Virus record (IMG/VR): IMGVR_UViG_3300027413_000005
Span: 56,249 to 76,248 of that record
Direction: 5' to 3' (one strand)
Length of the DNA stretch: 20,000 nt
From: an uncultured virus (IMG/VR IMGVR_UViG_3300027413_000005)
Taxonomy: Duplodnaviria; Heunggongvirae; Uroviricota; Caudoviricetes
Below the pieces are notes generated by a model. The model had not been told where the DNA came from. It searched no databases and saw only the letters and a list, made by a program, of their open reading frames with translations. The position numbers and the translations under genes were made by a program. Positions 2 through 15,927 of the stretch are shown piece by piece (the first letter of the stretch is position 1; every line of letters starts with the position of its first letter).

Positions 2-3000
2 ACTTTTGTAATTAAAGCTAAGAATGGAGAACAGTCATTACAAATAGGACAAGAGTATTTTGTAGGACAAGGTGTAAACTTTGAAGGGGAAACACCTCTT
101 GATGAACCAGTAGTAATAAGTAGTTTTGTTCCAGTAGGACAGAATGAAGATGGAACTATTCAGATCAAAGATCAGTCTGGCCAGGTAAGGGATATATCAC
201 CAGATGTTTTATTAGATTATAATGTAGGTAGAAAATCTACATTAGTTAATAACAAGACAGCTAACTTCTATTACAGGCATAGGGATAAAGTATTTGAATT
301 TAACTTTGGTAAAAACTTTGGAGGTAAAAGAAAAGGAAGACTTATGTATGATAATGGGAAACTGTTTTTTGTATATAAAGATTCTAATGGTACTATTCTT
401 AAAAAAGAATTAGCTAATAAGTTTTTTGCACCACAACCTGGATTTGATCAAGCAAGAATTACTCCAGTAGGAAAAGTTACTGCTGAACAACAAGATGCTG
501 CAAATCAGTTTCTTAGTCCAGAGGAGTTAGCAAAGAATGAACAAACTCTTCAGTCAAATAGAGAGAATAGGCTTAAGATAATGAATGACTTAGGCGTAGA
601 GTCTAAGAGAAGATTAGAGGAGATAAATAAACAGTTAGAGAAGGATAGAAAGAAACTAGCTATCATTAAGAAAGATCTTGAGTCTATCTATACAATGAAA
701 GAGGGAGGTTCTAGAATAAAACTAACATATTCTAAGGCACAAAAGAATTTTACTAGAGCTATAAATAACTATACTGCTATGCAACAGGATACGCAAGATC
801 GTATCACAGAGTTAGAAAGAGAGCAAGAAGAGCTTGATTTAAACACTTCATACTTTGAAGCATTTGAAGTAGATCTATTAGACCTACCAGGAAACACTAA
901 AGAGTTTTTAAAAGAATTAAAAGATCAACTATCTTTACTAGAACAAAATGGTAAAGCTGTAAACAACGAAATAAAAGCTAATAACAAATTACTAGACTCT
1001 ATAAAGAAAGCTACTAAGAAGGCAGCTAAGTTACTTAAGAGTGCTTTAGAAACTACATATGTATATGATGAAGATTATGGTGATTATTTAAAAGATCTTT
1101 TAGAAAAGTCTGTGACTGGAGAAGACTTATTAAATACATGGCCTTTATTAAAACAAGAACTAGCTAACTTTAATCTTACTAACGACATACAAAAAGAAAC
1201 TAATGTTTCTGAGAGAGATGTGTTTGATGCATTAGAAAGTCGTAAAGAATTAGAAGCTACATTAGAGAGTCTAAGAAAAGAGTATGTAGCTAAGAAAGTT
1301 ATTGTAGATAGATTCCAAAGAGTAATGGATGAGTATGTTGTAGAAAAACAAAATCAAGATAAGATTGCTAATAATACTAAGTTGCTAGCAGACTTACAAC
1401 AAACTGCAAATACTGGTCCTGTAACAGATGCAGAACCAAAATCATTTGATCCTATTTCTAAAAAGTCTAATGACGTAATACCAAGAGCTAGTGTAGGTGA
1501 ACCTACAGGCCCAATACAGGATCATCAAGTTAGAGCTAATACATTTGGAGTAAACTTAAATAAGTTTGCGAATAGAAAGAATATTCGTGCTATATATTTA
1601 ACACTTAAGACCCAAGACCAAAAATTAGATGGGGTTGTACAAAGAATACTTGATAATGGTAGTCCAGAACTTATGGAAAAGTTTGGAGATTCTATTATTG
1701 TTATGGTGATGATAGATACAGCTGGTAACTTAGTAGGAGTTGATGGTCAACCTATACCTAACACTAAGAATCAACTAGACAATGCTATCTATCAAACTAT
1801 ACCTGAATCATCTCTTACAAACACTAAAGGTAGTTTGTTTAGAGTAGAGGATAGCGAAACAGCTGCAATTAAAAAACAGTTTGGTGTCTTTAGAAAAGGT
1901 ATTCTAGACAGGAATATGGTAGGTGTACCATTTAATATAGAAGCATCTTTTGGTATACCTCAATATGAACAAGACTCTAATGGAAATAATGTCTTAGGAA
2001 CTACATCTGTAGTAGAAGCAGACTTAATTAGTGAAACGGATTTATCTAAAACTAATGTAATATTTATTCCTACGACTAACAAGAATATATTTAAAGGTAC
2101 AGTTACGTACTCTCAACCTTTTGGTAGTGTATTTTTAGATCTACCTAATGGATATGTTAAGTTAAGAAATAGAAAACATACTACACAAGAAGCAGAAGCT
2201 ATATATGATTCTTTACATGCACTCTCTAAAGAGATAGTAGATTTAGATAAAGGAGCAACTAGTGATACATCAGTTCGATTATTTAACTTTTTAAAAGGTG
2301 TAACTTATTGGGGAATTCCTGTAGACACTAATGGTAATAGAAAAGCAACAGGACAAAATAGTGTGTTCTTTGAAAGAGAAATTGGTGAATCAATATCAGG
2401 AATAAATTTTACTAAGTTATCATTAAAAATGGGAGCATTTCCATCAGTGGATTTTAACCCTGTTTCTATATCAAAGAATAAAGAATTTATTATTGAGACG
2501 TTGGGCCAGATGTATAATAACATCGATAACTCTAATCTAAAAAACATAGACCAGTCCTTTGAGCAAATAACAAAAATAAATGAGAACGGTACAATAGAAT
2601 CAATAACGTGGCCTAATTACCAAACCTATCTATTATCTAAAAACATACCAGGAGGAGGTACAAGACAAGATTTTCAACTTCCTTTACATACTACAATGAA
2701 ACCTGTGGTAGAAGGTAGTGATGAGGTTAACAGAAGGGGTGTATATTTTGTAAATGAAGATAGTGCTGAAGATTTTATATCCGAAGTGGTGCCACCAAAG
2801 TCAACAAGAATTCAAGTAATAAGTCCAAAAGGACCAGCTGCGCCAACACAACAAACTAGTGAGGTTAGTTTAAATAAACAATCATCTTTAAGTACTATAG
2901 TTTCTTCATGGTTACAAACAGAGGAAGGTTCTTTAGACAACCAAACTGCAGAAGAATCAGCATCTAAGTTTGCTTTAATCTACAACAGAAAAAACCCTGT

Positions 3001-6000
3001 AACAGGTGAAGACAATAGATCAGTAGCTGAGATTATAGAAGGCAACAAAAGCTTAACACCTGGTCAAAGAAAAGATAACGCAGGTCAAGTAGGTACAGAT
3101 CTATTTAACACAATTGCTCAAGGCATGAGTGTTAGAGAAACTATATTGAATGAAATTAAAAATCAAACTTTATCTTTAAAACCAACACCACAAACTAGTG
3201 AGGTTGAAGTTGTATTAGATAACAAACAAACTAATACCTTTACCAGTCCTAAAGGCAAAAAGATTTTGTTTAAAGCTTCTCCAAGTACTACTGCTCAAAA
3301 CTATAAGGAAAAGGGACAGATTTCAGTTATGATGAATGATGACTTGAAACAATTACTTGCAGAAAATCCTGATGCTGCAACACAAGAAAAAATAAAGAAA
3401 AGTATAAAGTATGAGATCTATAATTATATAGCACCTGAGTTAGCTAAATTAAAAGAACAGGATGCAGAGGATGAAATGCAAATGACTCCTGAGATGTTTG
3501 ATCAGATCATGGCTGCAAGAAAACAAAAAGGTAAATCATCTCCAAGTAGTGATGTGCTAAACGCTTTAAAGAATGGACGTAATAATCAGAACAATGAAGT
3601 TCTACGTGAGGTTGTTACTGAGTCTATAGAGGGAATGAGTGAGGAGAACTGGAAAGATGCAAGAGCATGGATGTCTAAGAATTTACCTGGTGTTAGTTTC
3701 AATAGAGTTAAGAATATAATAAAAACTAAAGATGGAAAAAAAGCATGGGGATTCTTTGAAAACAATAGTATATATGTATATGAAAATGCAGAAGTAGGTA
3801 CAGTTTACCATGAAGCATTTGAAGCTGTCTTTGCACAATTCTTATCTCCACAAGAAAAGGAAAAACTATTTAATGAATTTACATCTCGCAAAGGAACTTT
3901 TGTAGACAGACCTACAGGAAGAACAGTAAAATATTCTCAAGCTACGAGAGATGAAATGAGAGAACAGTTAGCAGAAGACTTTAGAGATTATATACAAGAC
4001 AAGAAAAAACCAGAAGGTGGTTTCTTTTCTAGAGTATTTAAACAATTAAAGGATCTTATTGAAAAATGGTTTCTTAGTCCACAGTCACAAACTTATAGTA
4101 ATGAATTGTTTGACAAGATTGATGGAGGTGGCTTTGTGTCTTTGGATTACCTTCCTCTTTTACCTTTTGGGTTATTTAATTCTTATGATACTGTTGACTT
4201 TGCAACACCAGGAACTAGTGCTGTATTTAGAGTAGAAACAGGTCTTAGTGATGTGCAAGTACATGATACGATTGAGCACATGACATATCTTACACTGAGA
4301 AATATAATTGCAAATAACGAAAGTTTATTCTCAGTACCAGAACTTAATCAAACAGAGTTATATAGTAGATTAAAAGGTGAGGTTCTTGCTTCTGTAGGAC
4401 AGGTGGCCCAACAGTATAAAGACATTCGTCCTCAGTTTGAAAAGTCAACTGGAGGTCAATTACAAGAAATAGATAATAAAATAGATGAGACTGTAGATCT
4501 AATGCAAAGAATAGATGACTCATGGACTTATCTTACTAAAAAGCATAAAGAATATATACTATCTTTTGGGATTACTTTTGATGAAGCTGATCAGTTACAA
4601 CTAGAAGAAGATAGATCTAATAAAGGGTATAATTCTGATGCTACAAAAATAGATAACTTTAAAAAGACTGGAGCAGCAGTAAAATTATTACTAGCTACTG
4701 TTCCAGTAGTTACAGTTAATGAAAATGCAGATGTAAGATTTAGTCCTAGCACTATAAACGGTGTTAAGCTTCTTCCTGTTACACAAACATTTATTACTGT
4801 TTTAGAAAATGTTTCTAATGCTACTAGCATGGAGAACATGTTAGAGAAGTTAAGGGATGTTGCTCTTAATGATCCTAATTACTTATCTTTATATAAACGT
4901 CTTAGTGGAAGAGGTGCTAATGAAGGTGCAGTTAGTCTTGACAATATTACTGAAAGACATCAGTTAACCTTACTAGCAGCATTGTTTAAAACATTTAAAA
5001 AACAAAATCCTATTGTTAAAATAGTAAATGTATTAGAGAATGGAGAAACTGTAGTTTCTGAAGCTAATTTATCTACAGCATCTCGTCAGATGTCTCAACA
5101 GTATCTAAACTCTATTGTTACTACATCTAAGAGAGGTAATGGAATATTTAAGCAAGTGGGTGGAGTATTTAATCCAGACACTAAAAAGTTATCTAAATAT
5201 CCTTTAAATACTTTGCAGAACATGTTTAATTTCTTAGGAGGATTAGGCATACCTTTTAATGCAAAAGAGTACAATAATTTTGATGTAGGTCAAAAGAAAA
5301 GATTTGCATCAGCTGTTAATGGAATAAAGAAAAGTATTGAACAATCAAAAGATATTAAATTCTTTTCTACTAAATCATTAAACTTTGCTGGACAGATATT
5401 AAATTTAGCTACATTAAAAGTTATAGCTACTAACCCAGAGGTATCTAGTACATACTTTAATATAGATGGTGAGAGAGTTCAAACTTATATTGGAACTAAT
5501 GCTGCATCTGAAGTACATAACTTTATGACATCTGTAGGAAATAAGCAAGAACTAGGAGATACTCCTTATTCTTATTTATTAACTGATGTATTCGCACAAA
5601 ACTCTACTATAATAGAAAGAATATATGATGCAGAAGGTAACCTAAGAACAGATAAAGTAAATTTATTTAAGCCAGGATATGCTGGAGGAATACTCAATGG
5701 ACAAAAAGGTACTGCAAAGGGATCATCTCAGTTACAATTTCCTGATAGACTACGACAAGAATTAAATCAAAACATAAATGGTCAATATCTAAACCTTGTT
5801 CCTGGAGATTCTTCTTTAGAGCATACGTTAGAAATGGGCAATCCTATTACTGAAAGAGACATAGTAAGTGGAGGTGCAGTATTAAACACTGTAATGAAAG
5901 GTTATTTTCTTTCTGAAGTAGAATTAGCTAGAGAAAAACGTGATATAGTTGAGATAGATAATAGACAAACTTCTGACTTAAGATTCTTTAAAGAGATATT

Positions 6001-9000
6001 AGGAGAAGAATTGCATGAAGAGATAAGACAAAATGTTTTAGATCCTGCTTTAACAGCAGAACAAGTTTATGAACTCAGTGTAGATAAAATTATAGATGCT
6101 ACTTCTTCTTATATACAAAGAAATAAAAATCAATATGCTACTTTTTTATTAAAGTACGGAGTTATACAACAAGCTGAAAATGAGCAATCAGGAGAACTTA
6201 CAGATAGGTATACTGCATCAGGTGTAGAAGGTATGACAAATATGACTATACAAGAAATGGACAGAAAACTTCTTGTGCAGGAGATTAATTATATCATTTC
6301 TAACATAGAGATGCATAAAATACTATATGGAGATCCTTATGGATATAAAGATGAACTTAAACGTATTAAAAGTTTCTTATCTCCTAGACAAGCTATAGTT
6401 AACAACTCTCCACAATGGAACAATAGAGCAAATGAAATATGGAATAGAGGATTAGAAATAGATACTGTAGGTTATACTAAGTTTACTAGAGATTACTTTC
6501 GAACTGTAACAGGAGGAGATGTAAAAGGAGTAATAGATATACCTAATTATAAAGCATATACAGAGACTGATGGTGGAGGAATAATTTCTATAAAAGCTTA
6601 TCGTAACTTTAGAATTAGAACTGCAGACTGGAATGATGCACAAGAGAGTCAATATAGATATGATATAGCTTGGTACAAAAGACACAAGAGTTTACCACTT
6701 TCAAAATCAGAAAAAGATCTTTTAAAAGAAGGTAACCCTCAAGTACAGAGTACATACGTAACTCTTAAACCTATTGTTTCTGGTGCTAAACTAGATAAAG
6801 ACGGTAGTGTATCTGCTAATAATAATGTAGTGCTAGATAAATATGCATTATATCCTCTTTCATACAGAGTGATGCATGAAATAAATCCTACATCTAATAC
6901 TCTTAAGTTATATGATAAGATGCAAAAAGAAGATATAGATTATCTGGTCTTTGAGTCTGGTAGAAAAGTAGGAGCAGAAGGTATACATGATACATATAAT
7001 GATGATGGTGAGTTTAATAATGCAGAATATGAAAGTGTTATAAATATACCGTTTAATATTATAAGTCTGCAATCAGAAGTACCTTCTAAGGAAGATGGAA
7101 GAGTAACACGTGCAAGTCAAATTACTAAACTTATAACTCTAGATTACTTAGATAATGGTATGCCTATAGATTATAAAGGTGCACTTGATCAGTGGTTAAC
7201 TTTAACTGAAGAACAAAAACAAAAAGCATCAGTTATATATGCAGAGATTCAGAATAACACAAAGCTCTTAGATGAGATGACCAAGGAAGGTCTTAATGTT
7301 ATGATGAAAAAACTTGGTATTACCAGAGTAGGTAACGCATATAAAGTTACTGATTTGGCTCCAGCTGCTAAAACATTACGTGAGGAATTATTTAAAAGAG
7401 AGACTAATGATAATATAAGTGATGCTCTAGATGGATTTTTAATGGGAGATGCAGTTCTAGAAGCTACCCAATCATATAATCAGATTAGAAATATATTATA
7501 TTCTATAGTACAGAAAAGTATTGTACGTCCTAAGATAAACGGTGGACAGAAAGTGCAGATACCTTCAGCATTATTTGAGTCTACTCGTACAAAAAAAACC
7601 ACTATTAATGGTAAGATAGGTTATACTTCTGAGGTACTTAAGTTTTACAATAACTCAAAGGGAGAAAACGTAATGGAAGTTATGGTGGGTCGTTGGTTTG
7701 GTAGTAGCTTATCTGATGAGGCACTTCTAGAATACCTAAACAATACTGAGGAAGGTCAAAAGATATTACGTGGTGTAGCTTTCCGTATACCTACACAGAA
7801 ACAAAACTCTATTGATGCTATAAAGATAAAGCAATTCTTACCAAAAGAATTTGGGGATAATGTTGTTGTACCTGCTGCTCTAGTAGAGAAGGTGGGATCG
7901 GATTTTGATATTGATAAACTTTTCATGTATCTTAAAAATGTAACATACATTAATAATGAGTTACAGTTAATTCCATTTTATGGATATGGTGAACAATCCA
8001 AGAAAAGATTTGGAGAGTTATTTGATGCAGGTTCACTTCTTAATAAAGCTCAGCAAAAAGAATTACAAGCTCAAATAGATTTGTTTGAATCTGGAGAACT
8101 TGAAGGTGATTTAATTGAAGCTATATTTGGAGAAACCTTTGACAATCAGGATGTTATTGATGATTACATATTAGAACTTAAAGACAAAGGTATACGTCAG
8201 ACTGTAATAGATAGAATGTATATGAGATCTTTAGAGAATGAATTTATTCAGTCTACAGAGAATCTTATAACCTTTCCAGAAAACTATGAAAGATTAACTG
8301 TTCCAAATGACGCTAGTCAATTAGAAGAATTATCTAAAGAGATTGTAGACAAGACAAAAGAATCAGCATTTAACTATCGTAACGTTGGTAACTTACTAAA
8401 TAGAAGATTTATGGCTAGGTTACGTAATGCTTTTGTACAAGGTAAAAGAGGTATTGGTATTGCTGCAGTGAATCAAACTAACTTAGCACTTAACCAACAT
8501 TCTCCAGTATTTGTAGAACTAAATAGTATAAAGTTTAGAAGAAAAAATACTGTAAACATACCTGATAACGGTGAGATGATAAGTCTTTCTGGTGTCAAAA
8601 ATAAAGCTGAAGATTATATATCAGACATAAATGGACAAGTGATAGATGGCATGGTAGATATATCAGCAGGTCCATGGATTATAGAGTTAGGAATTACACC
8701 TGCTACAGCTTCTACATGGTTGTACTTAATTAAGGCTGGTGTACCAATAGATTCTGTAGCATACTTTATGAACCAACCTATCATTATTGACTATTTAAAC
8801 AAGATAGAAGAGAGTGGTTATACATGGTTATTTATAGAGGACTTTGCTAATGAGCTTAAAGAAAATAAATATGACAGCCCAAGTAACTTAACATCTGCTG
8901 AAAAACAACTTCTTCCTGATTCAAATGCATTACGTTCACAACTTGGTAAGACTACCTTTAGTAATAAAGATGCTGCATATCAAAGACTTATATTAGATGA

Positions 9001-10546
9001 GTTTTTAAACTACGCAAAGCAAGCTCAAGATCTATTTGAAGTAACACAAGGTACGAATTGGGATACCTCTACATTTAATGACCCTCTACTCATCTTTAAA
9101 AAAGAAGAACAATATTTAAATGCATTACAGAAACCCATATTTAGTTATGTAGATGGAAAAGTAATTCCAGCTGCTGAAGCTTTAGTACAAACCACTTTCT
9201 TAAAAGAAACTATATTGTCTCTTACACAAGCAAGAAATGGCATAGCTAACTTTCTTACATCAGATCAAGACAGGAGTAGAACAATCTTGCAAAAGGTTTT
9301 ACGTCCATACATTAATAGATCAGATAGAGATTTTATTAAAATTAGTAGAGCTGCAACAAATAGTTTCTTTGATTATGCAGTTCAGACAGATCAAAATTTA
9401 AACATGTTTCTAAAGTCTTTACTGATAGACAAAGATGGAATAGCTTTTCAAGTAGACAAGTTTGTCGAAGATGTATTAGGAAACCCTAACCATCCTTTAT
9501 ATGAAAACCAAGTAGTGCGACTATTGGAAAGTGATCCTAATAAACGTGTTGGGGATGTTGCTAATAATATAAAGTTAAGAAACAATGATAGAAAAGTTTA
9601 TGAACAGAACTCTATTATATATGCTTTCCGCCAACTTAAAGAAGAATTAGGTGATGGAAGTAATCTATATAGTAATATTTTAATAAGTTCTATACTACAG
9701 TCAGGTTTAAATAATTCTCCTATATCATTTACATCTTTGTTACCTTATGAAGACTTCCAAAAAATATACAATCAAACATTGTCTACCTTAGAAAAAAACC
9801 CTAACTTGAACGACTTCTATGAACTAGGTATGTTCGAGAGAAATAATTGGTCTGCTGGAAGTGGAATTGTTCCATCAAAGAAGGCTCCTTGGATACAAAC
9901 AGATCAAGGTAAAAGATACAATCCAGCAATGTTATACCTTCCTAAAAACATTAAAGCAAGTACAGCTACAAAAGCTATACCTCAATTAGTAACAATTGGT
10001 ACAGGGACTAGGGAAGGACAATCAGACTATATAACATATAGTTGGAACAGTGGAAGTTATGATGCTAAACAAAGAAAAGAAATGGCTTCTAAAGGAGACT
10101 TCTCATTTATTAATAAAGCTTTATTTAAGAAGATAAAGAGTGGAGATGAAGGTTTTATTCATTCTTACAAACAGAAAAAAACTGGTAAACTTATGGAATA
10201 TTTTGTATACAAACATATAAATGCACTAGGAGATTCTTATAGAGCTCAAGAATATTACATAAATGCTAAGCCTTCTGTATTTGATAATGGTTTATTAAAA
10301 GCAGAAGAGAAACAAGATGTTACTATAATAGAAGCATGGAAAGGAAAAGCTGCTGTAAGGCCAGTTGCTCAAAAGAATGACACATCAGACAGTAACCAAT
10401 TAGTTACTAAAACAGGTGCAGTCTATAAATTAAGTTTGTCAAATGCTACGTACAGTGAAGCTGCTATTAATACAGTGCTATTAACAGAGCTAGGGTATAC
10501 AGAAGAACAAGCAGGTGAGATATTTGAAGAAATTTGTAAAATATAA
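2..10546 (+). CDS. Giant virion-associated polyvalent protein containing a crAss-like/phi14:2 gp66-type DNA-dependent RNA polymerase (5'-truncated, >3514 aa)
   Basis: The frame of the track ORF 344..10546 stays open back to base 2 (TFVIKAKNGEQ...KRKGRL-M), so ATG 344 is internal and the true start lies outside the window. Motifs: ETDGGG (6563-6580), ESGRKVG, FRIPTQ (7781-7798) and GSDFDIDK (DFDID at 7901-7915), the DxDxD catalytic loop variant of crAss-like virion RNAPs. Zincin-like HEAFE at 3809-3823. Ends at TAA 10544-10546. Confidence 0.9.
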   Translation, partial: TFVIKAKNGEQSLQIGQEYFVGQGVNFEGETPLDEPVVISSFVPVGQNEDGTIQIKDQSGQVRDISPDVLLDYNVGRKSTLVNNKTANFYYRHRDKVFEFNFGKNFGGKRKGRLMYDNGKLFFVYKDSNGTILKKELANKFFAPQPGFDQARITPVGKVTAEQQDAANQFLSPEELAKNEQTLQSNRENRLKIMNDLGVESKRRLEEINKQLEKDRKKLAIIKKDLESIYTMKEGGSRIKLTYSKAQKNFTRAINNYTAMQQDTQDRITELEREQEELDLNTSYFEAFEVDLLDLPGNTKEFLKELKDQLSLLEQNGKAVNNEIKANNKLLDSIKKATKKAAKLLKSALETTYVYDEDYGDYLKDLLEKSVTGEDLLNTWPLLKQELANFNLTNDIQKETNVSERDVFDALESRKELEATLESLRKEYVAKKVIVDRFQRVMDEYVVEKQNQDKIANNTKLLADLQQTANTGPVTDAEPKSFDPISKKSNDVIPRASVGEPTGPIQDHQVRANTFGVNLNKFANRKNIRAIYLTLKTQDQKLDGVVQRILDNGSPELMEKFGDSIIVMVMIDTAGNLVGVDGQPIPNTKNQLDNAIYQTIPESSLTNTKGSLFRVEDSETAAIKKQFGVFRKGILDRNMVGVPFNIEASFGIPQYEQDSNGNNVLGTTSVVEADLISETDLSKTNVIFIPTTNKNIFKGTVTYSQPFGSVFLDLPNGYVKLRNRKHTTQEAEAIYDSLHALSKEIVDLDKGATSDTSVRLFNFLKGVTYWGIPVDTNGNRKATGQNSVFFEREIGESISGINFTKLSLKMGAFPSVDFNPVSISKNKEFIIETLGQMYNNIDNSNLKNIDQSFEQITKINENGTIESITWPNYQTYLLSKNIPGGGTRQDFQLPLHTTMKPVVEGSDEVNRRGVYFVNEDSAEDFISEVVPPKSTRIQVISPKGPAAPTQQTSEVSLNKQSSLSTIVSSWLQTEEGSLDNQTAEESASKFALIYNRKNPVTGEDNRSVAEIIEGNKSLTPGQRKDNAGQVGTDLFNTIAQGMSVRETILNEIKNQTLSLKPTPQTSEVEVVLDNKQTNTFTSPKGKKILFKASPSTTAQNYKEKGQISVMMNDDLKQLLAENPDAATQEKIKKSIKYEIYNYIAPELAKLKEQDAEDEMQMTPEMFDQIMAARKQKGKSSPSSDVLNALKNGRNNQNNEVLREVVTESIEGMSEENWKDARAWMSKNLPGVSFNRVKNIIKTKDGKKAWGFFENNSIYVYENAEVGTVYHEAFEAVFAQFLSPQEKEKLFNEFTSRKGTFVDRPTGRTVKYSQATRDEMREQLAEDFRDYIQDKKKPEGGFFSRVFKQLKDLIEKWFLSPQSQTYSNELFDKIDGGGFVSLDYLPLLPFGLFNSYDTVDFATPGTSAVFRVETGLSDVQVHDTIEHMTYLTLRNIIANNESLFSVPELNQTELYSRLKGEVLASVGQVAQQYKDIRPQFEKSTGGQLQEIDNKIDETVDLMQRIDDSWTYLTKKHKEYILSFGITFDEADQLQLEEDRSNKGYNSDATKIDNFKKTGAAVKLLLATVPVVTVNENADVRFSPSTINGVKLLPVTQTFITVLENVSNATSMENMLEKLRDVALNDPNYLSLYKRLSGRGANEGAVSLDNITERHQLTLLAALFKTFKKQNPIVKIVNVLENGETVVSEANLSTASRQMSQQYLNSIVTTSKRGNGIFKQVGGVFNPDTKKLSKYPLNTLQNMFNFLGGLGIPFNAKEYNNFDVGQKKRFASAVNGIKKSIEQSKDIKFFSTKSLNFAGQILNLATLKVIATNPEVSSTYFNIDGERVQTYIGTNAASEVHNFMTSVGNKQELGDTPYSYLLTDVFAQNSTIIERIYDAEGNLRTDKVNLFKPGYAGGILNGQKGTAKGSSQLQFPDRLRQELNQNINGQYLNLVPGDSSLEHTLEMGNPITERDIVSGGAVLNTVMKGYFLSEVELAREKRDIVEIDNRQTSDLRFFKEILGEELHEEIRQNVLDPALTAEQVYELSVDKIIDATSSYIQRNKNQYATFLLKYGVIQQAENEQSGELTDRYTASGVEGMTNMTIQEMDRKLLVQEINYIISNIEMHKILYGDPYGYKDELKRIKSFLSPRQAIVNNSPQWNNRANEIWNRGLEIDTVGYTKFTRDYFRTVTGGDVKGVIDIPNYKAYTETDGGGIISIKAYRNFRIRTADWNDAQESQYRYDIAWYKRHKSLPLSKSEKDLLKEGNPQVQSTYVTLKPIVSGAKLDKDGSVSANNNVVLDKYALYPLSYRVMHEINPTSNTLKLYDKMQKEDIDYLVFESGRKVGAEGIHDTYNDDGEFNNAEYESVINIPFNIISLQSEVPSKEDGRVTRASQITKLITLDYLDNGMPIDYKGALDQWLTLTEEQKQKASVIYAEIQNNTKLLDEMTKEGLNVMMKKLGITRVGNAYKVTDLAPAAKTLREELFKRETNDNISDALDGFLMGDAVLEATQSYNQIRNILYSIVQKSIVRPKINGGQKVQIPSALFESTRTKKTTINGKIGYTSEVLKFYNNSKGENVMEVMVGRWFGSSLSDEALLEYLNNTEEGQKILRGVAFRIPTQKQNSIDAIKIKQFLPKEFGDNVVVPAALVEKVGSDFDIDKLFMYLKNVTYINNELQLIPFYGYGEQSKKRFGELFDAGSLLNKAQQKELQAQIDLFESGELEGDLIEAIFGETFDNQDVIDDYILELKDKGIRQTVIDRMYMRSLENEFIQSTENLITFPENYERLTVPNDASQLEELSKEIVDKTKESAFNYRNVGNLLNRRFMARLRNAFVQGKRGIGIAAVNQTNLALNQHSPVFVELNSIKFRRKNTVNIPDNGEMISLSGVKNKAEDYISDINGQVIDGMVDISAGPWIIELGITPATASTWLYLIKAGVPIDSVAYFMNQPIIIDYLNKIEESGYTWLFIEDFANELKENKYDSPSNLTSAEKQLLPDSNALRSQLGKTTFSNKDAAYQRLILDEFLNYAKQAQDLFEVTQGTNWDTSTFNDPLLIFKKEEQYLNALQKPIFSYVDGKVIPAAEALVQTTFLKETILSLTQARNGIANFLTSDQDRSRTILQKVLRPYINRSDRDFIKISRAATNSFFDYAVQTDQNLNMFLKSLLIDKDGIAFQVDKFVEDVLGNPNHPLYENQVVRLLESDPNKRVGDVANNIKLRNNDRKVYEQNSIIYAFRQLKEELGDGSNLYSNILISSILQSGLNNSPISFTSLLPYEDFQKIYNQTLSTLEKNPNLNDFYELGMFERNNWSAGSGIVPSKKAPWIQTDQGKRYNPAMLYLPKNIKASTATKAIPQLVTIGTGTREGQSDYITYSWNSGSYDAKQRKEMASKGDFSFINKALFKKIKSGDEGFIHSYKQKKTGKLMEYFVYKHINALGDSYRAQEYYINAKPSVFDNGLLKAEEKQDVTIIEAWKGKAAVRPVAQKNDTSDSNQLVTKTGAVYKLSLSNATYSEAAINTVLLTELGYTEEQAGEIFEEICKI
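2843..3205 (+). repeat. Pair of 24-bp direct repeats (2843-2866 and 3182-3205), 339 bp apart and in frame
   Basis: ccaacacAacaaactagtgaggtt versus ccaacacCacaaactagtgaggtt, 23/24 identical, encoding PTQQTSEV and PTPQTSEV. Confidence 0.9.
3640..4075 (+). other. Zincin-like (MPTase-type) domain in gene 1 with altered metal motif HEAFE
   Basis: AWGFF..NSIYV....EVGTVYHEAFEAVF, then REQLAEDFRDY and an amphipathic FFSRVFKQLKDLIEKWF helix; this is the layout of HExxH zincin domains of phage polyvalent proteins. Confidence 0.65.
6300..8800 (+). other. RNA polymerase core region (two-barrel type) within gene 1; boundaries approximate
   Basis: Ordered motifs LYGDP..KDELKR, TDGGG, LKP, KYAL, SGRKVG, RIPTQ, GSDFDIDK, GIGIAA, DGMVD, recognised by eye as the pattern of crAss-like RNAPs. 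Confidence 0.8.
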
Positions 10547-10549
10547 GAA

Positions 10550-13500
10550 ATGGCGACATGTCCTAATATAAATTTACCAGAGTGGAAAGAGCTGGTTGCT
10601 GCCCAAGGTAAAGCAAGAGCATACTTTCTATGGAATGAGTATAGTGGTGATGTTCCTGGACAGGAATACACTGGTGTAGCAGGTGTTGAATCTATTTCCC
10701 CTAAAGTAAAACAACTTATAGCTAAAATGGGTGTAGACATTCTAGACCTACAAACTTATGCAGAGCAAAATCCTGATATAGATATTAGTGGTGCTTATGC
10801 TATTGCAGATGCTGTTGGAAAGATGATTGCTATAAGTGAAGGGTCTACAGATGTAGAGGTGACAGAAGAGATAGTGCACATTGCCACTCAAATAATAGAA
10901 GAAAAGAATCCTGGTTTAGTTACAGAAATGATATCTAAAATAGGTAGATTTAAAATATATAAGGACACATTAAAACAGTATAGGAACATTCCAGCTTATC
11001 AATTAGAAGATGGAAGACCTAATATTAGAAAGATAAAAAAAGAAGCTGCAGATAAACTAATTACTCAATTAGTCTCTAGTAGTCTAACTGAAACCGAAAT
11101 CTCTGAAGAGTTGTTAGAAGAAGAGAATGCTTCTATATTTAGAAGAATTTGGAATGATATAACTGACTGGTTCAAAGGACAGTATGCAAAATCTAATTTA
11201 AATATATTTCAAACAGCAGCTGATCAAGTTGTTGAAGGGGTAGAGGGAAGTTTAATTGATGGTACACCTAGAGAGATATACTTTTCTGTAACAGATGCTC
11301 AAAAGAATATACAGAGAGAACTATTAGAAACTCAGAAAATTCTTAGAAGTGTTCCTGTGGTAAAAGAGAACTCTAATCCTTTACTAGGTGATGAGATAAG
11401 TAATGAATATGAATTGTATGTAGACGGTGAATGGAAAAAGAATCCAAAAAGAGTAACAGACCAAGTAAAAAAATACTATTTAGAAAAGTTTAAAAATAAA
11501 CCACCGTTTACCAAAGAAGAGGATAGAGATAATGAGTTTAAAAAACAACTTGGTATAGAGTTTCATGATTACTTTCAAGAGATTCATTCTAGATACTTTA
11601 ATGAAGATGGCACAAGAAGAGAAGTTTCTAAACCTCGTCCTGTAATAGAAGATTCTAAAAAGGCTGTAGTCTATGCAAAGTTAGAAACATACTATACAAA
11701 TCTTGTTGCAGAATATTCTAAAGATGGAAAGACTCCTCTCGTATTTTCTGAGATAAAAGTATATAATAAAAAAGAAAAGGAAGCTGGTACGATTGATCTT
11801 CTTATCATAGATGAAAATGGTAAGGCTAATATATATGATTGGAAGTTTATGAGTATGTCTAAAACAGCTGAAGATGTATCTAATTACAAACAAGGTGCAT
11901 TTGGTATACAGCTTAGGTCATACAAAAATATATTACAGCAAGACTACGGAGTTAAAGAGATAGGAAAAAATAGAGCTGTTCCTATTTCTCTTGAATTGAA
12001 AAGAGAAAACTTTCAAGACAGTAAGTCTCCTTTAACTTTTACTGGTATAGGTATAGGTAGTGTAAACCCTACTGAAATAGAACCACTCTACTATACCCCT
12101 GTATCAGAAAAATCAGAGAAAACAGGATTTGAAGAATTAGACGACCTTATATCTAAACTAAATGCTGTATACGGTCAGATAAGTAAAACAATACCCAATG
12201 ACGAACTGTCAAAAAACAGTAAGAAAAATAGACTTGGGATTCTTAAACAGGCAATACGTCAAGCTCAGGCTAATGAAAACATCACTCCTACTATAGATGC
12301 TTTAAGAGTAATACAAACTGAAGGAGAAAATATTATAGCTGAGTATAAAACTATATATGAAGGAAGACCTGCACAATCAACAGACTTCGAAAATTCACAA
12401 CTTTCAGACTTCTCTAATAGAATAGATAACTATAAAGAACAAGCAAGTGCATTCAGTAAAATAAATGAAGAACTGTCTCCAATACTTCAAGCTGCTCAAA
12501 GTATTTCTAAAGAAGATAAGGCACGCATTCAAATTGACATAGATGCAAAAGCTCGTATGTTAAATATAAATGTTTCTGAGATAGAAAAAATAAGTGGTGA
12601 ATTTATAGACAAGTTTGTAGGACTAAGAAATAATGAAACAGGACTATTAGAACCCCAAGCTTTATTGAGAGGGCTTAAGGCAAGGTTCCGAAGTTTATCA
12701 GAGTTACCTCTGCCTTCACTAAGGATACTATCTAGACTAGCTAGAATAGCACAGTCAAAAGGACAAACTAAGTCATTAGAAGATGTTAATAAACTTTTAG
12801 AAATTAGAGATAAGATTAAGGAAAAAGGTGGTAATTTATTAAATACTGTAAATCCCTTATATCAAAAAGATAAAAAAGGAAGATTAGTAAATAAACTTGT
12901 ATACAAATATTCTAAAGACTTCTATGACGCTGTTAAGGATAACGCTCAAGAAGGAAATAGAAGTAAAGCGTGGTTACAGGACAATGTAGACTTATCAGCA
13001 TATAAGTTAGAAGCTGATAAAATGATTCAGAAACAGTTAGCTAGCAATAAAGAAGGATATGAAGATGAAGAATTAAGAAAGGAACTTGATCTGAAAGCTA
13101 AACGCATGTATGATGTGACTAGAAATGACTTTACTGGATGGGATAACTACATAATAAAAAGACACCCTTTGTCTAAATGGGAGTCAGTTGAATATCTTAA
13201 TATTAAAAAAGATAAGGATCTACTTGAGTTATATAATTTTACTCAAAAAATGAATGACGAAGCTGAAAAGATGGGTTATCTTCAAGGAAAAATTGCTAGC
13301 ACATTCTTACCTTTTGTTCGTAAAGGAACAGCAGAATCTCTTTCCTGGGAAAATGGTTTAAGTGTTTTACAAAACTTTGGAAAATCATTAACCAGAAGAG
13401 CAGATGATATAGGATATGGATCTATAAATGAGATTACAGGTGAAACAGAAAATGGTATACCTAAATACTATACTAGTGATTTTAGTAGAACTGAAGACCC

Positions 13501-15415
13501 TGAAGTAAATGACATGACTGATGTATCATTAGAATTCTTTAAAAATCAAATACTTTATATTCAACAGATGAATAAGTATAAGTACATGAAGGAAATTGAA
13601 GGACAGATAAATCTAGTTAGAACTATAGTACAAGCAAAAGATCATTACAAAACTAGTCCTAATTCCAAAGTGATAAGTGAAGGGGGAGAACCTGTAGTTG
13701 AAAAAGGTAATAAAAACAATGCAAAGATTTTTGACTTGTTTATGGAAACAATTATGTATGATAACGCATTTCCAGATGATAGTGAAGATTTTGGTATACC
13801 TACTGGGAAAATAAGAAAAGGTATAAATAGTGTTTGGACGCAAATGACAGGTAAACCTTTGTTTAAAGAAGGTGAGAAAGGAACTAACTATTCTATTGTT
13901 AAGAGTATGCAAGTTTTAAATAATGCTTTTCAAATGAAAACATTAGGATTAGAACCTATCTCTGGTGCGGTAAGTCTTTTTGGTGCAAACATTCAAGTAG
14001 CAGCACAGTCAGGTAACTACTTTAATTTTAGAGAGTACGTTAAGAATGAATTAAAAGTTTTAGGAAACTGGAGTAGAAAAAAAAGTGGTGTAGAAACAAA
14101 ACAAATGAAAGTTTTTGAGCAACTAACTGACTTGTTTATGCCGCTTAAAGATAGTCCTATATATGAAAAGTTAAAGACGTCTGGTGTAAACCTATCTACA
14201 AGACTTGACATGGAAGCAGGTGATACATTGTTTGCATTTTTCAGACAACCAGAAATAGTCTTAGAAAAAGGATTGTTCATGACTCTTTTAGATAACACAA
14301 TGGTTATTGATGGAAAGCTAATAAACATACCTGAGTTTGTAAGAAATAAATATAAAAATAGATACAACAACGCTGAAACATTTAGTAACATTAAAGGTGA
14401 TATAGAATCTGAAATACAAGATCTTAAAAAGAATAAATCCATAACTAGCACTTCTAAACTAGGAGAGAATGGTAAAGTAGAAGTTCCAGGTTTAAATTTA
14501 AATGACAGGAAAGAATTACAACGTATTACAGACCTCACAAGAACTTTAGCTAGAAATGCTACAGGTGGCTTTACAGACTTTGATAGTATTAAAATGAACA
14601 TGAACATCTGGACTAAGTCTATGATGGTATTTAAAGGGTGGATACCTAAACTTGTAGACACAAGGTTTAGTGAGTTTAGAAAAGTGGGAGATGACTTTAA
14701 TGTAAGAGTTGATGAAAATGGAATTCTTACTGGAGAGAAATATGATATTGGTAGAATAAGACTGTTCGTTGGTAATTTTCTGTCAGTTAATATATTAAAA
14801 AGTATAAGAGAGCTTCGATCAATAGGAGCAGTGGGAGGTACTTTAAACGATGAAGGTTTAGAAAAGTTAGATAAGATGTTTGAATACTACTCTACTTTCT
14901 ATAAAGAAACTACTGGTAAACCTTTCAACATGTCTAGAGAAGATTTTATAGACATGGTTAGAACTAATACTAGAAAACAATTACAAGAACTTCTTTTGTT
15001 AGTAGGATTAAATCTAATGCTATTTGCAGTAGGGTTTATGGAACCAGACGAAGATGATAGAGCTTCAAAAAACTGGTTCTATTTTCAAGAGAAAACTCTT
15101 AGAAGATTTCAACAAGAGCTTATGTTCTTTTATAACCCCTCAGAGTGGAGTGCTACTCTTGAAGGTGGTCTTTTCCCTTCTCTTTCATTACTAAGTGAGA
15201 TGGAAAAATTCATTACCCAATCTACTAAAGAAATTACAGGATATGATTACAGTGATCCAAATAAATCTGAACAGGACGTAAGAAGAGATGCTGTTCCTGT
15301 AAAGTATTTTATGAAACTATTACCTGTAACTAAATCTTTAGTACAGTGGTTATCAATATTTGATATCGGCTTTGCTGAAGAAATGGATGTAACAATAAAT
15401 GCACGTCCAAGATAA
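10550..15415 (+). CDS. Large putative virion-ejected polyvalent protein (1621 aa): degenerate zincin-like domain, PD-(D/E)xK nuclease, helical region, C-terminal hydrophobic segment
   Basis: Long ORF starting 3 nt after the gene 1 stop. EEIVH at 10865-10879 with downstream KKEAADKLI and IFRRIWNDITDWF. Nuclease motifs GIEFH...SE...AGTIDLL...IYDWK...QLRSY (11552-11925). Hydrophobic LLLLVGLNLMLFAVGFM (14990-15040). Confidence 0.8.
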   Translation: MATCPNINLPEWKELVAAQGKARAYFLWNEYSGDVPGQEYTGVAGVESISPKVKQLIAKMGVDILDLQTYAEQNPDIDISGAYAIADAVGKMIAISEGSTDVEVTEEIVHIATQIIEEKNPGLVTEMISKIGRFKIYKDTLKQYRNIPAYQLEDGRPNIRKIKKEAADKLITQLVSSSLTETEISEELLEEENASIFRRIWNDITDWFKGQYAKSNLNIFQTAADQVVEGVEGSLIDGTPREIYFSVTDAQKNIQRELLETQKILRSVPVVKENSNPLLGDEISNEYELYVDGEWKKNPKRVTDQVKKYYLEKFKNKPPFTKEEDRDNEFKKQLGIEFHDYFQEIHSRYFNEDGTRREVSKPRPVIEDSKKAVVYAKLETYYTNLVAEYSKDGKTPLVFSEIKVYNKKEKEAGTIDLLIIDENGKANIYDWKFMSMSKTAEDVSNYKQGAFGIQLRSYKNILQQDYGVKEIGKNRAVPISLELKRENFQDSKSPLTFTGIGIGSVNPTEIEPLYYTPVSEKSEKTGFEELDDLISKLNAVYGQISKTIPNDELSKNSKKNRLGILKQAIRQAQANENITPTIDALRVIQTEGENIIAEYKTIYEGRPAQSTDFENSQLSDFSNRIDNYKEQASAFSKINEELSPILQAAQSISKEDKARIQIDIDAKARMLNINVSEIEKISGEFIDKFVGLRNNETGLLEPQALLRGLKARFRSLSELPLPSLRILSRLARIAQSKGQTKSLEDVNKLLEIRDKIKEKGGNLLNTVNPLYQKDKKGRLVNKLVYKYSKDFYDAVKDNAQEGNRSKAWLQDNVDLSAYKLEADKMIQKQLASNKEGYEDEELRKELDLKAKRMYDVTRNDFTGWDNYIIKRHPLSKWESVEYLNIKKDKDLLELYNFTQKMNDEAEKMGYLQGKIASTFLPFVRKGTAESLSWENGLSVLQNFGKSLTRRADDIGYGSINEITGETENGIPKYYTSDFSRTEDPEVNDMTDVSLEFFKNQILYIQQMNKYKYMKEIEGQINLVRTIVQAKDHYKTSPNSKVISEGGEPVVEKGNKNNAKIFDLFMETIMYDNAFPDDSEDFGIPTGKIRKGINSVWTQMTGKPLFKEGEKGTNYSIVKSMQVLNNAFQMKTLGLEPISGAVSLFGANIQVAAQSGNYFNFREYVKNELKVLGNWSRKKSGVETKQMKVFEQLTDLFMPLKDSPIYEKLKTSGVNLSTRLDMEAGDTLFAFFRQPEIVLEKGLFMTLLDNTMVIDGKLINIPEFVRNKYKNRYNNAETFSNIKGDIESEIQDLKKNKSITSTSKLGENGKVEVPGLNLNDRKELQRITDLTRTLARNATGGFTDFDSIKMNMNIWTKSMMVFKGWIPKLVDTRFSEFRKVGDDFNVRVDENGILTGEKYDIGRIRLFVGNFLSVNILKSIRELRSIGAVGGTLNDEGLEKLDKMFEYYSTFYKETTGKPFNMSREDFIDMVRTNTRKQLQELLLLVGLNLMLFAVGFMEPDEDDRASKNWFYFQEKTLRRFQQELMFFYNPSEWSATLEGGLFPSLSLLSEMEKFITQSTKEITGYDYSDPNKSEQDVRRDAVPVKYFMKLLPVTKSLVQWLSIFDIGFAEEMDVTINARPR
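11552..11935 (+). other. PD-(D/E)xK (RecB/Cas4-like, PDDEXK_1-type) nuclease domain in gene 2
   Basis: G-x3-H helix, E, GTID (11786-11797), DWK (11837-11845) and QLxxY in canonical order; catalytic D and D-x-K intact; no Cys, so no Fe-S cluster. Confidence 0.8.
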
Positions 15416-15501: not shown

Positions 15502-15927
15502 ATGAGAACCGCTGAAACTTGCCCAACTTGCTCCACTTTTCAAGATGCTACATGTATCTTGTATACTGGGGTATATCTACCTAATATTGATGCTAATCCA
15601 GGAACTGATCTGAATATTATATTAGAAGGTATAAATACAAATCTAGTACCTTTAACAGGAACAGGAGCTCCTGACGCACCTTCTTCTAATCCTCCTACAA
15701 ATATAAATTCTCCTGCACCTTATGTGGGGCAGATTTATATTGATAATGCTTCAAGTTTGGTATACTATGCAGCCACTTCAGGAACTGCAGATGATTATGA
15801 CATACTTATAACAGCACCTAAAACAGGAGCACCTGAATACTCTAACAATGCTGCAGCTGTGTTTGCAGGATTATCTATAGGTCAGATATATAGAACAGGA
15901 GACTTTCTTAAAATAGTACATTTATAA
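15502..15927 (+). CDS. Small putative virion/tail-associated protein (141 aa)
   Basis: N-terminal CxxC...CILYTG..L module similar to the N-terminus of the next gene; GTGAP...GQIYID fibre-like motif; C-terminal YSNNAAAVFAGLSIGQIYRTGDFLKIV. Codon usage like neighbouring genes. Confidence 0.75.
   Translation: MRTAETCPTCSTFQDATCILYTGVYLPNIDANPGTDLNIILEGINTNLVPLTGTGAPDAPSSNPPTNINSPAPYVGQIYIDNASSLVYYAATSGTADDYDILITAPKTGAPEYSNNAAAVFAGLSIGQIYRTGDFLKIVHL

Follow-up and report, generated by a model that had tools for sequence, protein, structure and literature searches.

In phage A4 (Anabaena phage A-4L, Saffermanviridae), two proteins of the pre-ejectosome are joined by a disulfide, from Cys1715 of gp27 to Cys5 of gp26, that was seen by cryo-electron microscopy (PMC12002296, in the part of its text available to us). 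The A-4L record lists gp27 with 1717 amino acids (aa) and a sole cysteine (Cys) at 1715, and gp26 with 1114 aa and a sole Cys at 5. Here we describe a comparable junction in an uncultured virus, IMG/VR record IMGVR_UViG_3300027413_000005 (G000; 76,248 bases, rated 67% complete). Its last 20 kb (G000 56249-76248), the 20,000 nucleotides (nt) that we call the window, hold two giant adjacent genes, gene 1 and gene 2, whose facing terminal Cys probably form a head-to-tail disulfide. As in A4, the genes are adjacent and appear to encode large ejection proteins, the sole Cys of the upstream protein is third from the C-terminus, and the sole Cys of the downstream protein is at residue 5 in A4 and residue 4 in the window; the window genes carry the sequence signature of linked ejection proteins of the A4 gp27-gp26 type. 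The C-terminal helix of gp27 docks on gp26 (PMC12002296), and the C-terminal Cys of gene 1 likewise ends a predicted helix. Unlike the window, A4 has no virion RNA polymerase (RNAP) and a single link. The available text of PMC12002296 presents the bond as a local stabilizer of a pentameric ring and mentions no general rule, no chain and no link to gene fission.

Homologous proteins, in the same order and with the same terminal-Cys rule, are encoded by two cultured crassviruses, phi14:2 (gp078-gp077-gp076) and crAss001 (gp47-gp50-gp49); in the GenBank numbering of phi14:2, gp077 is the RNAP that appears as gp66 in PDB 6VR4. In both phages, as in the window, this RNAP block sits past two or three Cys-free cargo genes, and the cargo proteins were found in virions by mass spectrometry (record notes; PMC10172136). 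For crAss001, the available text of PMC10172136 places gp47, gp49 and gp50 in virions, where they are thought to exit through the tail partly unfolded; the particles have inter-subunit disulfides in the portal vertex and tail, and the cargo is unresolved in the maps. The methods of that study include spectra of a non-reduced sample. The three proteins of the block are sometimes fused, and the study of the phi14:2 RNAP (bioRxiv 10.1101/2020.03.07.982082) suggested proteolytic cleavage of the fused forms, not covalent joining of split ones. Unlike phi14:2 and crAss001, the window has the first two members fused (4287 aa), which leaves one junction, not two, and it has a last member that bears a PD-(D/E)XK domain and is only weakly gp49-like.

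As is predicted for the window phage, the Schitoviridae (N4 gp50; DEV gp71, gp72 and gp73) deliver a giant virion RNAP, and Cys is suppressed across their ejection operon. For the N4-like ejected proteins, PMC11445570, in its available part, ascribes the suppression to passage through the periplasm and gives a Cys frequency of 0.00075% in DEV gp71 homologues versus 0.865% in proteomes. Unlike the chain member in the window, the RNAP of the N4 type is one polypeptide with zero Cys and no terminal pair, and it belongs to a different class of polymerases, the T7-like single-subunit one. The crassvirus chain, unlike the Schitoviridae proteins, keeps exactly those Cys that face a neighbor.

An earlier note on this DNA had claimed that genes 1 and 2 carry one Cys each, at their facing ends, and codon counts confirm it (Table 1). 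The junction reads ...GAA GAA ATT TGT AAA ATA TAA GAA ATG GCG ACA TGT CCT... From position-specific base composition, 41.2 Cys codons are expected in the visible part of gene 1 and 19.5 in gene 2, and the observed numbers are 1 and 1; TGT/TGC counts in the two other frames of the same DNA are 46/196 (gene 1) and 25/76 (gene 2). A partner Cys in the N-terminus of gene 1 that lies upstream of the window, which the note had named beforehand as fatal to its proposal, is absent, the full 4287-aa open reading frame (ORF) having a single Cys. Genes 1 and 2 in full contain 2 Cys in 5908 residues versus about 60 expected. Assuming that a lone Cys is equally likely at every residue, the joint chance of finding one no more than 6 residues from the end of 4287 and another within residues 2-5 of 1621 is about 3.5e-6. 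The three ORFs before gene 1 (839, 1191 and 898 aa) have zero Cys, so that five consecutive ORFs with 8851 residues in total hold 2 Cys; other virion or structural genes of G000 contain 1.8-9.7% Cys. The five cargo ORFs share the near-absence of Cys found in ejected proteins of the N4 gp50 and DEV gp71 type. These five ORFs (G000 45047-71663, which in the window extends to 15415) are also poor in histidine (His; 0.3-0.7%), and His is low in other structural genes of the record as well (0-1.4%), so its scarcity may not be specific to the cargo.

The terminal Cys proved to be conserved, and to occur together, in homologous gene pairs, as the note's proposal demands. A first scan returned 10 loci, and both Cys were present in 9/9 loci that held the junction; in those 9 they are the only Cys of gene 2 and of the visible 998-999 residues of gene 1. 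A profile-based scan covered 80 loci, with gene 2 identities of 100-25% and 59 distinct terminal-sequence pairs (L followed by a number denotes an individual related locus compared with the window, and A1 to A4 are alignments of homologues). An automatic rule asked that the gene 2 homologue have its first Cys no later than residue 5 and that an upstream ORF of at least 400 aa have its last Cys among its final 6 residues. This rule was passed by 76/80 loci, and after inspection both Cys were found to be kept in 79/79 informative loci. The uninformative locus, L093, is cut inside gene 2. Both L054 and L074 fail the rule because their first in-frame ATG falls within the upstream ORF. Read from the following ATG, L054 starts MATC... 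and L074 starts M-x-C, and their upstream ORFs terminate in ...KKLC and ...KECY, respectively. L079 fails with just 178 upstream residues visible, and these end ...KTCKK.

Residue 4 holds the N-terminal Cys in 47 loci, residue 3 in 28 and residue 5 in 2. At the C-terminus, the Cys is the final residue in 37 loci, the penultimate one in 16, third from the end in 17 and fourth to sixth in 8. These positions are kept while the flanking sequence differs, with at least 10 unrelated N-terminal contexts (among them MATCPN, MACNVQ, MSKCALDI, MAECQVF, MPCKIQIK, MSCNDKK, MAHCVNRSSPEF and MKLCHRDK) and as many C-terminal ones. The spacing between genes 1 and 2 in the relatives ranges from -1 (an overlap of 1 nt) to 723 nt, with differing frames. 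Since both synonymous codons, TGT and TGC, are used at both sites (70/9 and 65/13) and the gene spacing varies, selection acts on the protein; that the terminal Cys are under selection is certain. The Cys content of the relatives is 0.057-0.063%. Several individual loci show further peculiarities. An insert of 723 or 489 nt separates genes 1 and 2 in L040/L041 (9275-10000) and L071 (9161-9652), with open frames of 247 aa (L040) and 175 aa (L071) across it and the terminal Cys retained. Gene 2 ends early relative to close relatives in L051 (421-aa ORF) and L057 (525 aa) and has an odd C-terminus, ...ISCCWTYKRYR, in L074; these ends are likely frameshifts or assembly errors. An extra Cys in the RNAP part is seen in most of the distant relatives (L029-L095; consensus DGKRVCEIMVGRWF in A2) and as Cys1334 of crAss001 gp50, and is absent from the window and from phi14:2.

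The same rule extends to 10 annotated crassviruses from the Steigviridae, Suoliviridae and Intestiviridae. At 14/14 junctions between separately encoded chain members there is a facing Cys pair, the upstream Cys 1-9 residues from the C-terminus and the downstream Cys at residue 3-5, and the outer chain ends lack Cys in all 10. In phi14:2, the only Cys of gp078 (1797 aa) is its last residue, the RNAP gp077 (2180 aa) has only Cys 3 and Cys 2179, and gp076 (1421 aa) has only Cys 3. In crAss001, the only Cys of gp47 is 2339 of 2341, gp50 has Cys 5, 1334 and 2404 of 2412, and gp49 has only Cys 5. The crAss001 gp47 gene is on the opposite strand, away from gp50, and still ends ...RCNS. Phages cr111_1 and cr128_1 show the same three-part pattern, and the gp47-type gene of cr128_1 likewise lies on the other strand from its partner and keeps the Cys at its end. 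In cr118_1, cr4_1, cr60_1 and cr108_1, the first two parts form one chain member ending in Cys, and the next protein starts M-x-C or M-x-x-x-C. The last two parts are fused in p-crAssphage (BK010471), in which gp45 ends ...SFSCM and gp44 begins with MSC and lacks a terminal Cys at its other end. In crAss002, gp32 ends ...SFVCS, and gp33 fits if its start is moved to the internal M33-S-C35. Summed chain lengths are 5908 residues in the window, 5398 in phi14:2, 6102 in crAss001 and 5212-6613 in the other annotated phages. The terminal Cys almost certainly act in pairs at the junctions between chain members.

Three details of the annotated genomes deserve mention. The sequence MSCTPSNPK within crAss002 gp33 (L106 15951-16050; residues 33-35 are Met-Ser-Cys) resembles the start of p-crAssphage gp44, MSCGNIK, and the annotated start of gp33 probably lies 32 codons too far upstream. 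The polymerase of cr108_1 is annotated as two ORFs, gp054 and gp053 (L099 20609-20900), which are separated within the DFDID motif by 290 nt and lack Cys at the break; this is probably an intron or other gene interruption and not two true protein ends. The Intestiviridae have a smaller cargo protein upstream of the chain with a sole Cys near its C-terminus and no evident N-terminal partner (p-crAssphage gp47, L105 4946-7519, Cys 856 of 857; crAss002 gp30, L106 5256-6929, Cys 550 of 557).

One locus in the window's own clade, L026, captures gene 1 in a split state. Here gene 1 is divided into ORF A, ending ...KEILIKKCKG, and ORF B, which starts MGVCPNIKLPEW / MGVCPNIKLPEWKRLV... and ends ...EIINAKCKG, followed by a gene 2 that starts MATCPNINLPEW. 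Residues 1-40 of ORF B share 60% identity with residues 1-40 of window gene 2 (E 4e-14), and an alignment of ORF B with window gene 1 starts at residue 62 of the former and residue 2188 of the latter (E 3e-63). Because ORF B begins like gene 2 and continues like gene 1, the split came with a second copy of the same connector pair, one that is missing from the fused gene 1 of the window. The fused gene 1 of the window spans the gp47-like and RNAP parts with no internal Cys. No connector module was found inside the other, fused upstream ORFs of the related loci; in the fused gut forms cr118_1, cr4_1, cr60_1, p-crAssphage and crAss002 the fusion points are unmapped, and Cys at the old junctions there were outside the scope of this comparison. 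L036 and L064 each have a lone Cys some 2150-2180 residues before the end, which was considered as a leftover connector and rejected, as it sits in unrelated sequence.

The two connector modules were compared in alignments of 30 sequences each. In A3, which covers the C-terminal module of gene 1, no column but that of the Cys is invariant, with a Leu and two Gly nearly so; AlphaFold2 predicts three short strands and two helices (residues 47-53 and 57-69 of the model), the last of which ends in the Cys, with a predicted local distance difference test (pLDDT) value of 85-92 over residues 21-70. In A4, which covers the start of gene 2, C4, N6, W12, L15, G20, W28, G33 and P36 are invariant, and the predicted fold is an extended Cys-bearing stretch (residues 1-9, coil) followed by a helical hairpin (helices 10-19 and 21-30; pLDDT 75-86 over residues 1-40). 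A fold search of the PDB with both models gave nothing at E 0.001 or better, the best values being 0.52 for the C-terminal and 4.1 for the N-terminal module. Neither A3 nor A4 has a conserved metal ligand beside its Cys (no invariant His, Asp, Glu or further Cys). Lysine or arginine is not clearly enriched near the Cys, being within 2 residues in 32/61 distinct C-termini and 15/52 N-termini versus 27-46% expected. For co-folding, the C-terminal 70 aa of gene 1 were paired with the N-terminal 75 aa of gene 2, using custom alignments of 30 rows each. The verdict was "weak support," with a score of 0.32 against 0.04 for the best of 3 controls, a pLDDT of at least 55 for the partner and at least 94% of contacts shared between runs. 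Among solved complexes 116/157 reached the mark, as did 2/215 mismatched pairs, counts that are only rough when custom alignments are used, and scores of 0.60 or less include only 18 of the 157 solved complexes and both mismatches.

Judging from these comparisons of sequence, we read the terminal Cys pair as an intermolecular disulfide that would join the C-terminus of the gene 1 protein to the N-terminus of the gene 2 protein in a head-to-tail thread of 5908 residues, and we give this reading a probability of roughly 0.68. The two proteins would be made separately in the reducing cytoplasm, where the C-terminal module of gene 1, which ends in a Cys-bearing helix, would dock on the N-terminal module of gene 2. 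The docked pair would be packed in the capsid, and the neighboring thiols would oxidize in the particle, a step that we infer; disulfides are present both in particles of crAss001 and in the pre-ejectosome of A4. On infection, the cargo would exit through the tail, partly unfolded, as one chain, in a fixed order and a 1:1 ratio. Because the link would lie within a few residues of both ends, there would be almost no side branch, and the N-to-C direction would be kept as it is in the fused forms. The rest of the chain would be kept free of Cys so that wrong pairs cannot form, and the link may be reduced in the host cytoplasm, freeing the parts. The location of Cys near both ends fits a one-direction thread that passes a narrow channel without a side branch, which the other explanations do not predict.

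A number of observations weigh against this disulfide. The bond has not been observed in any crassvirus, the sequences give no sign of how or when oxidation happens, and gut crassviruses live in an anoxic habitat in which oxidation is unexplained. A blastp comparison of A-4L gp25-gp29 with genes 1 and 2 detected no homology (best E 0.007 over 62 residues, the rest at least 0.06), and without homology the A4 case is an analogy only. Many relatives hold a third Cys, and 43/59 internal Cys of the upstream ORFs map to the RNAP part, 891-1251 residues before the end. In gut phages the internal Cys number as many as 7, so that confinement of Cys to the ends is not universal, and an odd extra thiol could compete. 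No locus has lost just one Cys of the pair, and pairing is therefore not testable through joint loss; the modules adjoin in the DNA, and their co-variation could reflect linkage alone. From the co-folding that the earlier note had called for, docking came out weakly supported, and contacts between the two ends were not reported. The published record is also quiet: the crAss001 atlas (PMC10172136), as far as its available text goes, is silent on cargo Cys, with the word "cysteine" absent from the main text, and the phi14:2 RNAP preprint (bioRxiv 10.1101/2020.03.07.982082) contains 0 occurrences of cysteine, disulfide or Cys.

Each terminal Cys could instead bond a third virion component (a portal-proximal, ring or other Cys-rich cargo protein), so that the chain ends are anchored with no mutual bond. 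Tail and portal-vertex proteins of crAss001 do use many disulfides (PMC10172136, available text), and the Intestiviridae cargo proteins p-crAssphage gp47 and crAss002 gp30 have a terminal Cys with no evident partner. An anchor does not predict, however, that C-terminal and N-terminal Cys are equal in number in 10/10 annotated crassviruses with none on the outer ends. In L026 the gene split created both Cys together, with a copy of the same two modules; the co-fold weakly favors direct docking, and the A4 pair is direct. We consider such anchoring improbable.

A further possibility is that the Cys serve a terminus function that is non-covalent or involves modification, such as a docking contact, acylation or a packaging or export signal, with no link between the proteins. 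The lack of an observed bond in crassviruses and the conservation of small modules around the Cys within clades would suit such a role. A common signal should share one end, whereas the first chain member has its Cys at the C-terminus only, the last at the N-terminus only and the middle one at either end; the related-locus sequences show no lipobox or signal peptide ahead of the N-terminal Cys, and retention for mere contact is hard to expect of a residue otherwise so strongly excluded. This explanation, too, has little in its favor overall.

The earlier note had also raised a shared metal site, in which the two thiols would jointly hold a bridging Zn, Cu or Fe ion at the junction with no disulfide. 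Two facing thiols could bind a metal, and the sequence rule alone cannot separate a disulfide from a metal bridge. A shared site is nonetheless less likely, given that each side offers a single conserved Cys and no other conserved ligand (His, Asp, Glu or a second Cys) next to it; moreover, the Cys position is kept while its surroundings are replaced by unrelated sequence, and the sole solved case with such a signature, A4, is a disulfide. We regard this site as very unlikely. Finally, chance, or a DNA or RNA constraint at the junction (translational coupling, a ribosome site or read-through of the in-frame TAA), might have been suspected from the window itself, in which the start codon has one Cys codon 13 nt ahead of it and the other 9 nt past it and the genes share a frame, but chance is excluded by conservation of the Cys in relatives, and with spacings from a 1-nt overlap to 723 nt, differing frames, two synonymous codons, gp47-type genes of crAss001 and cr128_1 that end with Cys on the other strand and 79/79 informative loci in accord, this explanation is already refuted by these results.

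Two candidate mechanisms at the junction were set aside. Read-through fusion of genes 1 and 2 across the single in-frame TAA does not fit relatives whose genes overlap by 1 nt or sit 1-723 nt apart in other frames. For a split intein with trans-splicing, inspection showed 2 residues past the C-terminal Cys and 3 before the N-terminal Cys, so no intein blocks fit.

A literature search on crassviruses and on terminal Cys in ejection proteins found no published description of this terminal-Cys rule. This kind of link is in print for one unrelated phage, A4, as a structural detail, to judge from the available text. For its spread across crassviruses, an RNAP-containing chain, the split/fusion rule and a portable connector, we found no published account.

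The gene identities that underlie this comparison, given in the earlier note as crAss-like, RNAP and nuclease, were right. By homology, gene 1 is a fusion of a protein like crAss001 gp47 and phi14:2 gp078 with a virion two-barrel RNAP of the phi14:2 type and joins in one polypeptide what are members one and two of the known RNAP cargo block of three proteins, since a gp47-like part and an RNAP part are matched along its length. Residues 118-2104 match crAss001 gp47 (blastp, E 6.6e-31 and 1e-8), with phi14:2 gp078 matched in the same region, and residues 2853-3701 match polymerases, namely phi14:2 gp077 (E 4e-22) and also crAss001 gp50. Profile A2, built from 38 gene 1 homologues, matches PDB 6vr4_A at E 2.9e-31 (profile positions 56-1068 versus chain 803-1762), and the G, D, F, D, I, D and K of its GSDFDIDK motif are invariant in 38/38 sequences; the DFDxD motif is named in the available text of bioRxiv 10.1101/2020.03.07.982082. 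As a single sequence, gene 1 has no Pfam, PHROG or PDB match. Its RNAP part matches 103 phage records, nearly all crassviruses. From homology and its place in a structural and cargo block, this RNAP is predicted to be packaged in the virion and to act on early genes. The full ORF spans G000 53886-66794, directly past the preceding stop, and counts 4302 codons if it starts at a TTG and 4287 if it starts at the first ATG.

In a profile comparison, gene 2 weakly resembles crAss001 gp49 (hhalign probability 53%, E 1.4e-4); as a single sequence it has no PDB match and no tblastn match in the phage collection at 1e-5. Its nuclease domain also matches the PHROG 298 exonuclease (E 8.6e-5), and E401, D416, D430 and K432 are invariant in 6/6 sequences (A1). 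With these residues and a score above the Pfam gathering threshold, gene 2 belongs by sequence to the PD-(D/E)XK superfamily, and nuclease activity is predicted. PHROG matches elsewhere in G000 include terminase (3.8e-81), portal (3e-94), major head protein (1.4e-37) and DNA polymerase (5.7e-138); with its terminase, portal, major capsid protein and a cargo block past the tail genes, the record has the predicted gene content and context of a crAss-like (Crassvirales) genome.

Table 1. Features of genes 1 and 2 in the window, numbered from its first nucleotide
Feature	Position	Strand	Remarks
Gene 1, 3' part	2..10546	+	3514 of 4287 codons in window; start upstream, G000 53931
GSDFDIDK, catalytic DFDxD motif of crAss-type virion RNAP (predicted)	7895..7918	+	identical in 6vr4_A
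C-terminal connector module of gene 1, last 48 residues	10400..10543	+	A3, 30 sequences; AlphaFold2
TGT, sole Cys codon of gene 1, third codon from end (EEICKI, then stop)	10535..10537	+	residue 3512 of 3514 visible
TAA stop of gene 1 (10544-10546) and one-codon spacer GAA	10544..10549	+	genes 1 and 2 in same frame
Gene 2, 1621 aa, last chain member, one Cys	10550..15415	+	relatives at 100-25% identity
N-terminal connector module of gene 2, residues 1-37 (MATCPNINLPEW...VP)	10550..10660	+	A4, 30 sequences; AlphaFold2
TGT, sole Cys codon of gene 2, residue 4 (MATCPN, ATG 10550)	10559..10561	+	sequence
PD-(D/E)XK nuclease domain (predicted), gene 2 residues 309-481	11474..11992	+	Pfam PF12705, E 2.8e-5, 24.6 bits versus cut-off 22

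Downstream of gene 2, an ORF at window 15943-19998 (+), which runs past the window end, is tail-fibre-like and has collagen repeats (21.5% Gly, 20.9% Ser and 18.5% Thr; Pfam Collagen, E 5.6e-95 in 13 stretches; many tail-fibre PHROGs) behind a Cys-rich N-terminus, MSKLICVADPC... Similar Cys-rich N-termini (MRTAETCPTCST, MLSPRLTNCKEC, MSTQNCSNCYNGC and MAYLPVNPCC) occur on several tail- or fibre-like ORFs, at window 15502-15927 (+) and at G000 22237-25839, 25862-26944 and 26957-27268 (+). In crAss001, fibre N-termini dock in hubs that are stabilized by disulfides (PMC10172136, available text), and by analogy the Cys-rich N-termini of the window phage may be docking ends.

Crassviruses are the most abundant human gut phages, and how they pack and inject more than 600 kDa of protein, including an RNAP, remains an open question; the phi14:2 study likewise left activation of the RNAP open (bioRxiv 10.1101/2020.03.07.982082). 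The terminal-Cys rule already aids annotation, as it marks true protein ends, for instance the start of crAss002 gp33. If the disulfide is real, a covalent thread would offer a simple answer for the order, ratio and direction of delivery and would explain both the exclusion of Cys elsewhere in the cargo and the free fusing and splitting of the three genes. A broader and more doubtful possibility, which we put forward tentatively, is that in crassviruses, and perhaps in podophages at large, the internal proteins are delivered in a single covalent thread of about 5200-6600 residues by means of portable connector cassettes, each a C-terminal helix ending in Cys and an N-terminal Cys followed by a helical hairpin, and that reduction of the link in the cytoplasm triggers release and activation of the RNAP. 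Were this so, the cassettes would let a giant gene break apart without breaking the thread, which would explain the free fusion and fission of these genes in evolution.

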